Positions 7,428 to 25,714 of a stretch of 64,000 nucleotides of DNA are shown in pieces. The DNA is from an uncultured Candidatus Saccharibacteria bacterium (GTDB lineage Bacteria; Patescibacteriota; Minisyncoccia; Phycocordibacterales; CAIZLB01). Within the stretch, counting starts at the first letter, position 1, and every line of letters begins with the position of its first letter. The stretch is from contig CAYQJB010000001.1 of assembly GCA_964417855.1 (NCBI GenBank), positions 102,709 to 166,708 of the forward strand, read 5' to 3'. Both the position numbers and the translations under genes were made by a program. A model generated the notes under the pieces. The model was not told the DNA's origin and did no database searches. It worked only from the letters and a program-made list of their open reading frames with translations.

Positions 7428-7519
7428 TGGCGGAGACGGAGGGATTCGAACCCTCGGTGCCGTTTAAAGGGCACACCTCTTTAGCAAAGAGGCACGTTAG
7501 ACCACTCTGACACGTCTCC
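7428..7519 (-). tRNA. tRNA-Ser (anticodon GCU), class II with long variable arm, CCA encoded
   Basis: Acceptor GGAGACG/CGTCTCC. Anticodon stem CCTCT/AGAGG with loop TTGCTAA. T-arm GAGGGTTCGAATCCCTC. Confidence 0.85.
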
Positions 7520-8153: not shown

Positions 8154-8157
8154 CTTA

Positions 8158-8191
8158 TTTGGGGTCAGGCACCATGGTGCCTGACCCCAAA
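8158..8191. repeat. GC-rich palindromic element (tttggggtcaggcac catg gtgcctgaccccaaa), likely bidirectional terminator. Member of a repeated family (second copy 15749..15803)
   Basis: Perfect 15-bp stem between convergent grx and ung. The same 14-nt arm recurs at 15749. Confidence 0.6.
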
Positions 8192-8193
8192 TA

Positions 8194-8874: not shown

Positions 8875-8954
8875 TAGCTGTATTATAGGTAAAAAGGCAA
8901 AAAATTCAAATAAGTTTGAAATATCTCAAAAATAAGATATACTGCCACATACAA

Positions 8955-9041
8955 GGAGGATTGGATGAGCGGCTTAAATCAACAGTTTACTAAACTGTCG
9001 GCTTGGAAACAGGCCCGTGAGTTCGAATCTCACATCCTCCG
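8955..9041 (+). tRNA. Class II (long variable arm, Ser-type) tRNA with apparent anticodon ACU. Possible pseudo-tRNA or atypical tRNA-Ser
   Basis: Acceptor GGAGGAT/ATCCTCC. D stem GAT/ATC. Anticodon stem ACAGT/ACTGT with loop TTACTAA. Variable arm GGCTTG-GAAA-CAGGCC. T-arm GTGAGTTCGAATCTCAC. CCA not encoded. Confidence 0.65.
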
Positions 9042-9184
9042 CAAAATAATGGGCATAGCCCATATATTTTGCGAGAGTGCAGAATAGGTTGCGAAGCGAC
9101 CGTAATTCTGCCTCCGCAAGTCATATTACCCTTAAAATTTGACACCCTCTGTATCTTTGTTAAACTATAGGTACAAATAGACTT

Positions 9185-9310
9185 TTAGTCGCAACCCCAA
9201 GCTTTTCCAAGAAGCTTGGGGATTAAATTTACAACATTTTCTATAATCTTATTATATTCAGAAGTATTTAGCCTACCCATTCTTAAGCCTAATCTTTTTG
9301 CATCATATAG
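9185..9310 (-). pseudogene. Truncated 3' fragment (about 41 codons) of a MazF/PemK-like toxin gene, paralogous to 10823..11239
   Basis: Minus-strand translation LYDAKRLGLRMGRLNTSEYNKIIENVVNLIPKLLGKAWGCD* aligns with the C-terminus of the full copy (RLYDSRRLGPRIGKLDKIGYNDVIKNIVNFIPKPLVETWGSD*). The 3'-most ~50 nt have the highest nucleotide identity, estimated by eye at about 80%. Confidence 0.55.
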
Positions 9311-9407
9311 CGCGGCAGAGACACCTGAAAAATAAAAAACCCACCCAATAGCTGACCCCTAGGCCTAAAACTATTGTGTGGGTTATTTTTATGTCAACCT
9401 TCCCCAA

Positions 9408-9686
9408 CTAGCGAGTCAACACTCCAGTCCGATGAAACCAATTCAATAGCATTGCTGTTAACCATCCAACCACATACCCAACAATGAATGTAAATATAAT
9501 CAAAGTCAGAGCGATACTAAATGAAAATGGCTGTACCTGAAATGGATTGTTAACAAAATGTAATCCAAATATCCAATCCATATAAATCTGGGCCCATCCG
9601 ATAAGCACAAAAAGACTCCAACATAAGTGAAATCCTCCCATTATACTTCCTGTAGCTAGACCTACTTTATTTTTATTAAGATTCAT
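9408..9686 (-). CDS. Small integral membrane protein (2-3 TM helices), unknown function
   Basis: 92-aa hydrophobic ORF followed by hairpin 9344..9385. Confidence 0.4.
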   Translation of the reverse strand: MNLNKNKVGLATGSIMGGFHLCWSLFVLIGWAQIYMDWIFGLHFVNNPFQVQPFSFSIALTLIIFTFIVGYVVGWLTAMLLNWFHRTGVLTR

Positions 9687-9691
9687 GAGTG

Positions 9692-10168
9692 TTATTTATT
9701 AAGTTTTATTTTTACTGATTTCTCCTTTGACCCCTCAACAACGGGCATCGTAACCACAAGTACACCATCCTTATATTCCGCTTCTGTCTTAGAAGAATCT
9801 ACAGCTTTTGGTAGTCTTACAGATCGAGAAAAGGAACCCCTCTTTATCTCCTTACTGTAGTAATCCTTTTTATCAACCTCCTTTTCTTCCTCCCTGCTGC
9901 CAGAAATTGTTAACATGTCATCCTCCAGTGAAATATCAAGTTCGTCAGACTTAATTCCAGGCAAGCTCATTTTTGCAATAACTTTATCTTTTTCTTCGTA
10001 AATATCGACAGCAAGATCCATACCCAATTTAGGCATAACCGGAAAAGATGGGAAAATGCGATCATCAAAAAATTTATCTACCTCACCAAATGGTTCCCAT
10101 TTAATTATTTGCATAATATTAATTATTTTAATCGTTCCACTAATATAATATACTATCGCTCTAGGCAA
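9692..10168 (-). CDS. Hsp20/alpha-crystallin family small heat-shock protein
   Basis: Alpha-crystallin domain (DIYEEKDKVIAKMSLPGIKSDELDISLEDDMLTISG ... EAEYKDGVLVVTMP). Real start probably the internal Met near 10114. Confidence 0.8.
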   Translation of the reverse strand: MPRAIVYYISGTIKIINIMQIIKWEPFGEVDKFFDDRIFPSFPVMPKLGMDLAVDIYEEKDKVIAKMSLPGIKSDELDISLEDDMLTISGSREEEKEVDKKDYYSKEIKRGSFSRSVRLPKAVDSSKTEAEYKDGVLVVTMPVVEGSKEKSVKIKLNK

Positions 10169-10234
10169 TTGATGATCGACCTATATATGGTAATTATCTC
10201 GCACTGCAAAAAAAAAGCAAACTATGCATAAATA

Positions 10235-10768
10235 ATGTATAGTTTAAATATGAAAAAATTGCTTTATACAGAAGCTGGGCCAAATGGAACTGCATACAAA
10301 AAAGGAGAATGGGAGAAGTTTGCCATACACAATGAAAATGAAATAAAGGGCTTTTTTGGCGAATACAGATTTCTGAGTAATTTCTGGCCAGCAAAAGTAT
10401 TTCTAGATAATGTAGAGTATTCAAGCGTAGAACTTGCATATCAGGCGGCAAAATGGAAACCTGAGTCCAGACAATTTTTCTCTACATGTACAGAATTAGA
10501 TTCAATAGATTTCAATAGACAAAATATACCAGATGGATACCCTACAGCTATATGGGATTCAATAAAACTATCTATAATGGAAGATTTAGTTAAGCAAAAA
10601 TTTGACCCAAAAATTAATCCTGAGAATTATCAAAAACTCCAATCTACAAACAACAAACATCTTGAAGAAATGAATTGGTGGGGTGACATATTTTGGGGAA
10701 CAACAGAAAATGGAGATGGAGAAAATAATCTCGGTAAACTACTAATGGCAGTACGCAAAAATATCTAA
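10235..10768 (+). CDS. NADAR (YbiA-like, DUF1768) domain protein
   Basis: FFGEYRFLSNFWPAKV...VEYSSVELAYQAAKW...NNLGKLLMAVR matches the NADAR N-glycosidase signature. Confidence 0.7.
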   Translation: MYSLNMKKLLYTEAGPNGTAYKKGEWEKFAIHNENEIKGFFGEYRFLSNFWPAKVFLDNVEYSSVELAYQAAKWKPESRQFFSTCTELDSIDFNRQNIPDGYPTAIWDSIKLSIMEDLVKQKFDPKINPENYQKLQSTNNKHLEEMNWWGDIFWGTTENGDGENNLGKLLMAVRKNI

Positions 10769-10822
10769 CTGTGTATTTGACATCCTTGTTTGATTTGATA
10801 GAATTCAAATACAAATCGACGC

Positions 10823-11239
10823 TTAGTCGCTACCCCAAGTCTCCACCAGAGGCTTGGGGATAAAATTTACTATATTTTTAATAACATCGTTATACCCTAT
10901 TTTATCCAGCTTTCCAATTCTAGGACCTAGCCTTCTACTATCATAAAGCCTTATATGAGAAATCATTACTGATCTAGTCACTGATTTTAATTGGACTTTA
11001 ATATAATACTTATTATCCTTATTTTGACTAGTCAAAGGAATACCCAAAAATAAATTTCTATTAAACTTTTTAAACACCAAAACGGGTCGTGAAAAAGTAT
11101 CGCTTTTCCCGTTCTCTTCATCACCTATGTTTACTCCAATTGAACACCAAAAAACATCCCTTTCTTTAATTGAAGGAAATCTTAATCTGACATCTAAACC
11201 ACTCTTTTTCACAGACCATTTTTCGAAGTCTTTTTCCAC
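10823..11239 (-). CDS. MazF/PemK-family endoribonuclease-like toxin with about 25-aa N-terminal extension. No cognate antitoxin gene detected
   Basis: RDVFWCSIGVNIGDEENGK...RPVLVF...FLGIPLTSQ...SVMISHIRLYDSRRL parallels the MazF/EndoA core (GDV..D..P..G.E....RPVLV...AIVCPITS...S.IL.EQIR). Confidence 0.55.
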   Translation of the reverse strand: MEKDFEKWSVKKSGLDVRLRFPSIKERDVFWCSIGVNIGDEENGKSDTFSRPVLVFKKFNRNLFLGIPLTSQNKDNKYYIKVQLKSVTRSVMISHIRLYDSRRLGPRIGKLDKIGYNDVIKNIVNFIPKPLVETWGSD

Positions 11240-11310
11240 TAATTAATTTTAGCAAAATCACATGAGTTTTTGATAAATAAATTCTAAAGAAAAACGAAAC
11301 AAAATAATTA

Positions 11311-11715
11311 CTAGGAAAGCTTGGATGTACAGAAAGCACACCTTGTTGCCTCTTTTGGAATCTCACTCAAACATTCCGGGCATTCCTTCTTTTTTGGTTC
11401 CAACTTTTTCAAATCGCGCTTAGCTCTTGCGATTAATATATTTATTGGAGTTAGAACAAAAAAATAAACAGAGAAAACGATTATGAAAAATGACATTAGT
11501 GAATTTATGAAGTCTCCAACCATAAATTTACTGTCGTTGATTGTAAAGAAGATGCTTGAAAAATCAGGAGACTTAACCACAGCCCCAATCAAAGGAGTAA
11601 TCAAGTCCTTAACAATAGCTTCCACAATCTTACTGAAAGCAGCTCCAACAGCAACTCCAACTGCCAAAGTAATCATGTTATCTCTTAATATAAATTCTTT
11701 AAATCCTTTTATCAT
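11311..11715 (-). CDS. mscL: Large-conductance mechanosensitive channel MscL with C-terminal zinc-ribbon-like extension
   Basis: MIKGFKEFILRDNMITLAVGVAVGAAF is the MscL TM1 signature. C-terminus has CPEC...CAFC. Confidence 0.85.
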   Translation of the reverse strand: MIKGFKEFILRDNMITLAVGVAVGAAFSKIVEAIVKDLITPLIGAVVKSPDFSSIFFTINDSKFMVGDFINSLMSFFIIVFSVYFFVLTPINILIARAKRDLKKLEPKKKECPECLSEIPKEATRCAFCTSKLS

Positions 11716-25233: not shown

Positions 25234-25351
25234 TTACCCCCCTGCATCATTCTGATGCAGGGGGGTTTATTGACACCTCTACCCTTCCGCTATAAGCTAT
25301 CATCAGCTAAACAAACTGCCAGCGACAGTACAAAACAGAACCTTTAAAATC

Positions 25352-25714
25352 ATGGACTCATTCAATGACCGTCTACTTTATTATATTGGTTTACTTTCCA
25401 ATGCTGACGACTCATACTCCCCCATTCAAATTAAATCACTAGCACTCGGCGTGTTTGTCACCGAAGACCGTCGTAATAGAGTTACTATCTTCTTTGATTC
25501 AGAAGAGTGGGAACTTGTGGACAATGGACAACAACAATGGATTACAGCAGGTAAAGTAAGTAAATATTATGGTATTGGAGCATTATGTTTTAATGGACAT
25601 GAAATGAACTTCTCTAATGTTTGTCGTTGGGCGAAAAAGAGCCTCCGTCCAATTTTTACAGGCACATGGAACCCCAAAGATACCCAAGCTAATATCCGTC
25701 TAGCGTTGAGCTAA
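25352..25714 (+). CDS. Hypothetical protein
   Basis: 120-aa ORF, balanced composition. Downstream long-range stem aaaatcccc/gggggatttt. Confidence 0.4.
   Translation: MDSFNDRLLYYIGLLSNADDSYSPIQIKSLALGVFVTEDRRNRVTIFFDSEEWELVDNGQQQWITAGKVSKYYGIGALCFNGHEMNFSNVCRWAKKSLRPIFTGTWNPKDTQANIRLALS

Follow-up and report, generated by a model that had tools for sequence, protein, structure and literature searches.

In a 64,000-nucleotide (nt) stretch of DNA from an uncultured Candidatus Saccharibacteria bacterium (contig CAYQJB010000001.1; hereafter the window), a gene for a MazF/PemK-family endoribonuclease, which is a candidate toxin, faces a convergent small RNA (sRNA) gene of ~60 nt. A conserved, structured and promoter-bearing convergent RNA gene of this kind is linked to nearly every member of the same protein family. 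The original prediction had described the protein gene as an orphan toxin, and had named small unannotated antitoxin open reading frames (ORFs) and antisense RNA as candidates for a missing partner. We found no recurrent ORF of this kind at 80 related loci, but did find the antisense, structured RNA gene. Our preferred reading, to which we assign a probability of about 55%, is that the MazF-family toxin is neutralised by an RNA antitoxin that acts mainly by direct binding, with a possible contribution from antisense pairing. We infer toxicity, neutralisation and the mode of binding from the features of the protein and of the RNA gene that are described below.

A MazF-family gene without a protein partner

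The candidate toxin gene occupies positions 10823 to 11239 on the minus strand and encodes a protein of 138 amino acids (aa) from a GTG start codon. A profile search, which the original prediction had suggested as a check, matched residues 26-123 to PF02452 (PemK_toxin) with an E-value of 4.1e-10 and a score of 40.3 bits (cut-off 23.1). An N-terminal extension of ~25 aa is left outside this match, and thus both the MazF/PemK core and the 25-aa extension that had been predicted are borne out. Pfam, NCBIfam and PADLOC returned no toxin family other than PemK/MazF for this protein. The AlphaFold2 (AF2) model is of moderate confidence only, with a predicted local distance difference test (pLDDT) value of 73.5. 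Its top 50 Foldseek matches in the PDB are all MazF-family proteins (MazF/EndoA/MoxT) at a probability of 1.0, with template-modelling (TM) scores of 0.49-0.60 when normalised to the query and 0.54-0.73 when normalised to the target.

A profile of 21 diverse family members was compared with the sequences of the PDB and matched Bacillus subtilis MazF/EndoA at 1.3e-5. In this alignment, the invariant R51 of the family falls on R25 and the T/S70 column falls on T48 of B. subtilis MazF, which we take to be the catalytic residues of that enzyme. As judged by this correspondence, the catalytic Arg and Thr/Ser are retained in the candidate toxin. The N-terminal extension aligns from residue 1, and K3, F5, W8 and K12 are invariant across the 21 members. 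The alignment thus presents the extension as a trait of the whole subfamily, a point that had gone unnoticed in the original prediction. Because an extended -10 box (TGCTAAAAT) ends ~6 nt before the GTG start codon and no Shine-Dalgarno sequence is present upstream (11240-11275, minus strand), the toxin mRNA may be leaderless.

In a homology search, 508 homologues were retrieved, typically of 127-138 aa, and an exhaustive profile search yielded 352 clusters at 50% identity (E ≤ 1e-30). In a collection comprising one genome for each of 185,579 species, 496 stretches of DNA matched, often with several copies per genome. Carriers include Parcubacteria/Paceibacteria, Saccharibacteria, Woesebacteria, Gracilibacteria, Rickettsiales, other Alpha- and Gammaproteobacteria, Chloroflexota, Bacteroidota and Verrucomicrobiota. 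The best 80 loci from this collection are the related loci referred to throughout.

To assess the neighbours of the family gene, ORFs of 35 aa or more within 1.5 kb were all clustered against one another. No neighbouring ORF family recurs in more than five of the 80 loci, and the most common arrangements involve mnmA (5 loci) and trpB-X-trpA (4 loci). Furthermore, both gaps that flank the family gene, measured to ORFs of at least 100 aa, are no longer than 120 nt in 19 loci, and therefore offer no space for an antitoxin ORF. A small protein antitoxin was rejected as the partner on the basis of the clustering and gap analyses. In the window, the toxin gene is preceded by mscL (11311-11715, PF01741) at a distance of 71 nt, and no ORF fits in the intervening gap, in agreement with the earlier observation that mscL is close by and that no MazE/PemI-like ORF lies upstream. 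As regards proteins, the family is truly solo, and a protein antitoxin partner is absent.

A conserved RNA gene convergent to the candidate toxin gene

The promoter of the sRNA gene in the window (copy 1) lies at 10777-10804 on the plus strand. It starts 8 nt past the stop codon of a NADAR-domain gene and faces the 3' end of the toxin gene in antisense orientation. This promoter is composed of TTGACA, a 16-nt spacer and TGa-TAGAAT (11 of 12 positions plus the TG), and is the highest-ranked promoter-like site between positions 8900 and 11400. A promoter scan identified twelve such sites in this region, and the top three include both this promoter and a second one at 9139-9166. These two are the only sites among the twelve with a perfect TTGACA and with TG before the second hexamer.

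The RNA gene itself (10809-10872, plus strand) comprises a leader (AUACAAAU), hairpin A (10817-10829), hairpin B (10833-10859) and a tail (AUAAAAUUU). From ~10823 onward, it overlaps the toxin stop codon and roughly the last 15 codons. The plus strand folds with a free energy of -24.0 kcal/mol (z -5.3), and none of 200 shuffled sequences folds as well, whereas the opposite strand folds more weakly (z -2.0 for copy 1 and -3.5 for the second copy described below). A covariance model of the RNA family, termed R1, scores 24.5 bits on this copy, with E-values of 2.4e-4 in 650 kb and 8.9e-7 in a local search. A hairpin of the form ccccaag...cttgggg had previously been noted in the last codons of both copies of the toxin gene. 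This hairpin is present (9195-9221 and 10833-10859), but it is not merely a feature of the codons, because it is hairpin B of the small RNA gene on the opposite strand.

Searches with Rfam 15 covariance models returned only tRNA and chance matches between positions 8900 and 11400 (E ≤ 10), and only tRNAs in 17 related loci at gathering scores. Plus-strand ORFs of 30-39 aa (10854-10946 and 9216-9335) exist because they are antisense to conserved codons. A peptide encoded by these ORFs was rejected as the product, given that the RNA lies outside any ORF in most loci.

The 3' ends and downstream DNA of copies from five different genomic contexts were aligned. Nucleotide conservation around and past the stop codon exceeds that inside the gene. 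The conserved string consists of AAATTTAATCCCCAAG, a variable stretch with compensatory changes, CTTGGGGTWGCGACT, a loop and GTCGATTTGTA. When read on the opposite strand, this string presents an invariant TTGACA, a variable 16-nt spacer and an invariant TGnTAnAnT. Among the 78 loci with enough flanking sequence, an antisense promoter matching at least 10 of 12 positions lies within 120 nt of the stop codon in 53, versus four for the sense strand of the same DNA.

When anchored on the -10 box, the layout of the RNA is identical in all 51 loci examined. The box is followed by ~6 nt and then by a single-stranded (U)ACAAAU leader, with conservation of AAAU at 90% or more. Hairpin A comes next, 2-5 nt of linker separate it from hairpin B, and an A/U-rich tail follows. 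Hairpin A has a stem of 3-4 base-pairs (bp) and a loop of ~4 nt. The stems include CGAC/GUCG, UGGC/GCCA, UGCC/GGCA, UGGG/CCCA, UCCC/GGGA, CGGG/CCCG, UGAC/GUCA, GGG/CCC and GCCC/GGGC, among others, and this variety is apparent without the use of any model. Hairpin B is GC-rich, has 6-13 bp and varies freely in sequence. The distance from the -10 box to the toxin stop codon differs among the 53 loci listed. It is 14-24 nt in 11 of these (the clade of the window and a Woesebacteria clade), which places the hairpins within the last codons, and ~48-64 nt in 37, which places the RNA in the 3' intergenic region. Two loci are intermediate (33 nt in L008 and 35 nt in L044), and three with distances of 75-88 nt (L006, L034 and L061) carry an additional canonical terminator between the RNA and the coding sequence.

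RNAalifold predicted no structure from a plain MAFFT alignment because the hairpins were out of register. Covariance models were built from hand-registered seeds to yield R1 (seed A6) and R2 (GGG-UUAU-CCC class). R1 was searched against both strands of 650 kb of sequence, and each of its 58 matches at E ≤ 1 is antisense to, and adjoins, a family gene. R2 yielded 26 matches at this threshold. Of these, 24 are antisense beside a family gene, another falls on L080, which R1 also matches, and the last is a marginal match on the sense strand of L006 (E 0.41). Together, the two models account for ~71 of the 80 loci. By eye, the RNA was also recognised in L046, L052, L053, L069, L075, L077 and the main copy in L079, such that at least 76 of the 80 loci carry the RNA. 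With a conserved non-coding partner at so many loci, the term 'orphan' is misleading. In the R1 alignment, 95.6% of cells are paired, compared with 67% in shuffled alignments and 37-55% in controls with slid partners, and all 13 modelled pairs change on both sides. The alignment also includes 32 G-U cells versus 8 A-C cells. This ratio, along with the better fold of the plus strand, indicates that the functional RNA lies on the promoter-bearing antisense strand.

These data also bear on a simpler explanation, in which the hairpin is a mere bidirectional terminator between convergent genes and the duplication an ordinary pseudogene. Hairpin B with its tail is rated terminator-like, as the scan indicates for the hairpin at 9195-9221, and the downstream gene is convergent in the window and in the relatives L001, L081 and L088. 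We consider this explanation very improbable, because it does not account for the invariant -35 and -10 boxes with their variable spacer, the ACAAAU leader or the covarying hairpin A. Moreover, the element occurs with downstream genes of either orientation, and the Northern signal for a distant counterpart, CJpv3 (see below), argues otherwise.

The second, truncated copy reported in the original prediction was recovered at 9185-9310 on the minus strand. This pseudogene fragment holds the last 41 codons of a MazF-like gene (54% identity, E 9e-16 in a single BLASTP comparison). Nucleotide similarity between the two copies runs ~50 nt past the stop codon. At the other end of the remnant, similarity stops at ~9310, directly after the terminator hairpin of a gene for a 92-aa protein. 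The copy 2 promoter (9139-9166, plus strand) is composed of TTGACA, 16 nt and TGt-TAAACT (10 of 12 positions plus the TG), and the five-locus alignments show its -35 and -10 boxes to be kept while the spacer varies. The corresponding RNA gene (9171-9234, plus strand) has a leader (GUACAAAU), hairpin A (9180-9190), hairpin B (9195-9221) and a tail (AUUAAAUUU). It is matched by R1 with 15.7 bits (E 0.0016 in the local search), and its plus strand folds at -20.7 kcal/mol (z -5.1), which none of 200 shuffled sequences equals. The stretch from the leader to hairpin A (TACAAATAGACTTTTAGTCGCAACCCCAAGC) is identical to that of an intact, mscL-linked locus, L088. The truncated copy is a decaying toxin remnant whose promoter and sRNA survive intact, making the latter a candidate orphan antitoxin.

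Similar situations are evident elsewhere. In L087, the homologous remnant is frameshifted in its coding part, and the promoter and RNA are intact. This remnant is located beside tRNA-Ser and uracil-DNA glycosylase (UDG) genes, with a NADAR gene on its other side. L087 and L088 were the only two matches in a metagenome scan with a 23-base DNA pattern. The toxin gene of L054 is also frameshifted next to an intact RNA. Additional RNA copies without a toxin remnant are present in L017 (3913-3963), L073 (3885-3935), L059 (4387-4438 and 4477-4529) and L009 (4379-4433 and 4458-4507). The second sRNA at these loci is either in tandem downstream of the family gene or on its upstream side, without a second toxin gene, and such copies may supply extra doses of the putative antitoxin. 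Intact toxin genes are almost never found without the RNA, and the RNA outlives the toxin at several loci. This asymmetry is as expected of an antitoxin.

Translated searches (tblastn) revealed family members on plasmids of Campylobacter, Helicobacter and Nitratiruptor, and in Campylobacter CJIE4 prophages. The member on plasmid pVir of C. jejuni 81-176 is CJJ81176_pVir0047 (NC_008770, 30634-31038, plus strand, 32% identity). A 77-nt sRNA called CJpv3, encoded on the minus strand of pVir from 31119 to 31043 between pVir0047 and pVir0048, has been detected by Northern analysis (Dugar et al. 2013, Table S12, PMC3656092). CJpv3 ends 5 nt past the pVir0047 stop codon, and its strand and coordinates identify it as the convergent sRNA of this family member. 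It has three hairpins, a leader unlike that of other loci and a terminal GC-rich hairpin. The same extended -10 box and hairpins, the last of them GC-rich and placed at the stop codon, are found on the plasmids of Nitratiruptor and Helicobacter suis and in the CJIE4 prophage. The family gene of the H. suis plasmid (5.8 kb) overlaps the relaxase stop codon, and that of CJIE4 lies between the terminase and portal genes, in both cases without a protein partner. A separate observation concerns CJpv2 (NC_008770 ~25268-25420). An ORF of 35 aa that is missing from the annotation lies on the strand opposite to it (L093 1014-1121, minus strand), and the Northern probe for CJpv2 equals the coding sequence of this ORF. 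This locus (~25.3 kb) has the look of a classical type I pair, and it is probably this locus, rather than CJpv3/pVir0047, that corresponds to the published CjrA/CjpT.

The family gene is wedged between trpB and trpA in L010, L045, L066 and L070, with a 4-nt overlap between its start and the trpB stop codon, and it adjoins mnmA in L011, L013, L016, L020 and L074. The module seems to insert between conserved genes in the manner of a selfish cassette. Conversely, its frequent presence within housekeeping operons (the overlapping stop and start codons of trpB-X-trpA, or a place after mnmA) would suit a domesticated, non-toxic RNase or RNA-binding protein for which the sRNA serves as a dedicated substrate, cofactor or regulator, rather than a toxin-antitoxin pair. 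The abundance of the family in reduced genomes and the lack of a match in the PADLOC defence library are also compatible with domestication. This proposal is nonetheless unlikely given the patchy distribution of the family (496 stretches among 185,579 species, with several per genome in places) and the conservation of its catalytic residues. Multiple or tandem copies, frequent pseudogenes with the RNA kept, and carriage by small plasmids and prophages are likewise signs of an accessory, selfish module.

Proposed mode of action and known systems

We propose that the locus is a two-part module comprising the MazF-family endoribonuclease gene and the convergent sRNA gene under its own near-consensus promoter, and that the sRNA is the missing antitoxin. 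The RNA would bind the toxin directly, with its ACAAAU leader (ACA / AAAU) placed in the active site, where it would serve as a pseudo-substrate or as a product of processing. The N-terminal extension, with its conserved basic and aromatic helix, would grip hairpin A in a type III-like manner resembling that of ToxI-ToxN. In the clade of the window, where the RNA lies over the last ~15 codons, type I-like antisense pairing with the toxin mRNA could be added. The truncated copy would then represent a dead toxin gene whose RNA gene is kept as an orphan antitoxin. The genes for NADAR, Hsp20 and the 92-aa protein would be unrelated cargo at a rearrangement-prone spot beside a tRNA-Ser gene.

Direct binding is favoured for several reasons. 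In most loci the leader and hairpin A are situated beyond the coding sequence and yet are kept across phyla, and a terminator insulates the RNA from the gene in L006, L034 and L061. In addition, ACA and AA^AU are cleavage motifs of MazF and ToxN, respectively, and ToxN is described as a MazF homologue with extra residues that bind its antitoxin RNA (PMC7781912). The occurrence of both recognition motifs in the leader hints at direct contact, and the Lys/Phe/Trp N-terminal helix would be a plausible counterpart of the added residues of ToxN.

The principal competing proposal is purely type I-like control, wherein the convergent RNA pairs only with the 3' end or 3' untranslated region (UTR) of the toxin mRNA, causing decay or blocking expression, and makes no contact with the protein. 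Precedents for type I control by convergent antisense RNA are txpA/RatA and bsrG/SR4. The RNA is encoded in cis, convergent to the toxin gene, and is the perfect complement of any read-through toxin transcript. Read-through is plausible given that the sense strand offers only a weak hairpin plus AUUUGU, and in the window the RNA covers roughly the last 15 toxin codons. Enzyme toxins are also found in type I systems, as is the case for SymE (PMC7781912). However, a cis-antisense RNA does not need a kept sequence or structure, yet ACAAAU and hairpin A are kept across Patescibacteria, Rickettsiales, Chloroflexota and others, with helix geometry held by compensatory changes. The canonical terminator that parts the RNA from the coding sequence in three loci, and the orphan RNA copies that lie away from toxin genes and so have no cis target, also speak against this proposal. 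We therefore view antisense pairing as the sole mode of control as somewhat unlikely.

Several points weigh against neutralisation by direct RNA binding. The pair counts given above derive from alignments fitted to the models, and are thus biased toward the modelled structure. The terminal U-tract is weak in most loci, which leaves the 3' end of the RNA uncertain. Conservation in the tail (UAA, AAU) could arise in part from the overlapping stop codon and a nearly invariant C-terminal Ile codon. R1 gives no match on the Campylobacterota loci, CJpv3 included, and the presumed homology of the RNA in that phylum therefore draws on synteny and layout. The sole relative with a demonstrated transcript is a distant one, that on the C. 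jejuni plasmid pVir. Finally, Shen et al. reportedly described two toxin-antitoxin systems on pVir in 2016. If the type II protein pair among these, VirA/VirT, includes pVir0047, the antitoxin there would be a protein.

The proposed module shares features with more than one type of known toxin-antitoxin system. As in type III systems (ToxIN, AbiQ/antiQ, CptIN and TenpIN), a MazF/Kid-class sequence-specific endoribonuclease would be paired with a small structured RNA antitoxin. The AAAU motif of the RNA resembles the ToxN site AA^AU and, like ToxN (PMC7781912), the toxin carries extra, possibly RNA-binding residues relative to plain MazF. In contrast to ToxI, which is an upstream, same-strand array of 34-36-nt tandem repeats with a terminator behind it, the RNA described here is a single unit that is located downstream, is convergent and has its own promoter. 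A check for tandem repeats found no ToxI-like array near the toxin gene, and a ToxIN-like arrangement of direct repeats was rejected. Unlike the type III toxins, the protein scores as PemK/MazF (PF02452).

Type I systems such as txpA/RatA, bsrG/SR4 and par (Fst RNAI/RNAII), and those with enzyme toxins such as SymE/SymR and RalR/RalA, likewise have a convergent small RNA with a strong promoter over the 3' end or 3' UTR of the toxin gene. The RNA of the window overlaps the toxin coding sequence, whereas in most other loci any overlap would be confined to the presumed 3' UTR. Type I toxins are small hydrophobic peptides, usually under 60 aa, whereas the protein here is a soluble RNase of 127-138 aa. 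Moreover, its RNA is conserved in sequence and structure across phyla and lies outside the coding sequence in most loci.

The type II systems MazEF and PemIK (Kid-Kis) have the same toxin fold, Pfam family and aligned catalytic Arg and Thr, but a MazE/PemI gene is absent from all 80 related loci, and canonical MazF lacks the conserved 22-25-aa N-terminal extension. The antitoxin of a type II module is a protein of the AbrB or RHH type, encoded beside the toxin and transcribed together with it. Another MazF homologue without an adjacent protein antitoxin is MazF-mx of Myxococcus xanthus (PMC2701414). MazF-mx resembles the family in this respect, but is a single recruited gene neutralised in trans by a protein partner, MrpC, that is encoded elsewhere, whereas here a whole subfamily has an adjacent RNA gene. 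The closest counterpart with a detected transcript is CJpv3, which is alike in its convergent orientation, its end 5 nt past the stop codon and its GC-rich end hairpin, and unlike in its three hairpins, its leader and its lack of an R1 score.

The protein itself looks ordinary for a member of a known superfamily, and the new part is the RNA partner and the architecture, which are not in Rfam or PADLOC and were not found in the literature searched. In our reading, the module is an RNA-controlled RNase toxin. A broader claim, which we advance only tentatively, is that these loci constitute an unrecognised class of toxin-antitoxin or defence module of an origin independent of ToxIN. In such a class, a MazF RNase with an N-terminal RNA-gripping helix would be neutralised by a single-copy, convergent sRNA of ~60 nt acting as a processed pseudo-substrate. 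Its range would span Patescibacteria, Rickettsiales, other Proteobacteria, Chloroflexota, and the plasmids and prophages of Campylobacterota.

A MazF-like toxin that stands alone is usually written off as a degenerate type II system or credited with an unknown partner elsewhere, whereas the subfamily examined here (352 clusters) carries an RNA gene missed by annotation pipelines and by Rfam. If the RNA is the antitoxin, MazF would join ToxN as an RNA-controlled RNase, the borders between types I, II and III would blur, and a natural RNA inhibitor of a MazF enzyme would be at hand. Such control would also explain how toxins of this kind are retained in genomes as small as those of Patescibacteria and Rickettsiales, and on plasmids and prophages of Campylobacter and Helicobacter. 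A culturable test host exists in the form of C. jejuni carrying pVir, with its gene pVir0047 and sRNA CJpv3.

Neighbouring genes and other elements of the window

The NADAR gene (10235-10768, plus strand; PF08719, E 3.4e-13) is convergent with the toxin gene at a stop-to-stop distance of 54 nt, and an Hsp20 gene (9692-10168, minus strand) and the ORF for a 92-aa membrane protein lie between the two MazF-like copies. The original prediction had correctly placed the NADAR gene, and had raised a pairing of its product with the toxin, such that NADAR or another neighbouring protein would be a non-canonical antitoxin or defence partner. A NADAR gene also adjoins the toxin remnant in the related contig L087, and the protein has weak matches to an anti-phage NADAR model (29 bits, cut-off 240) and to PADLOC PDC-M42C. 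However, homologues of NADAR, Hsp20 and the 92-aa protein are absent within 4 kb of all 80 related loci, and these proteins were rejected as the partner on this basis. In the close relatives L001, L081 and L088, the family gene is flanked by genes that differ from those of the window, with synteny limited to mscL, which is shared with the two nearest. In DarTG-type systems a NADAR or macrodomain gene is consistently paired with a DarT toxin, whereas no DarT-like gene is present among the ORFs around the toxin gene in the window and the 80 loci lack the NADAR gene. The adjacency was observed in the lineage of the window only, and the pairing is thus unsupported; we give it hardly any weight.

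In four Rickettsiales loci (L012, L016, L036 and L038), the family gene lies beside very large ORFs of 748-1117 aa, which are possibly CRISPR-associated helicase/nuclease genes.

A tRNA-Ser gene at 8955-9042 (plus strand) was identified by ARAGORN and Rfam (51 bits), and has the anticodon ACU in the loop UUACUAA. An A at position 34 of a Ser tRNA is unusual for bacteria. The L087 homologue shares this anticodon loop, and the window also encodes a normal tRNA-Ser(GCU) at 7428-7519 (minus strand). Near the ACU tRNA gene, a palindromic element of ~45 nt (~9064-9125) starts with the inverted 3' end of the tRNA-Ser (TGCGGAGG-CAGAAT...ATTCTGC). One copy is present in the window and three in L087 (~1730-1960), between the sRNA promoter and the tRNA. 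The gene content around this element differs between the lineages of the window and of L087. The element may be a repeat resembling repetitive extragenic palindromes (REP) or miniature inverted-repeat transposable elements (MITE), or its copies may be integration scars at the tRNA. A separate, perfect palindrome of 19+19 nt (TATTTGGGGTCAGGCACCA / TGGTGCCTGACCCCAAATA, 8156-8193) lies between convergent glutaredoxin and UDG genes, and is probably a bidirectional terminator.

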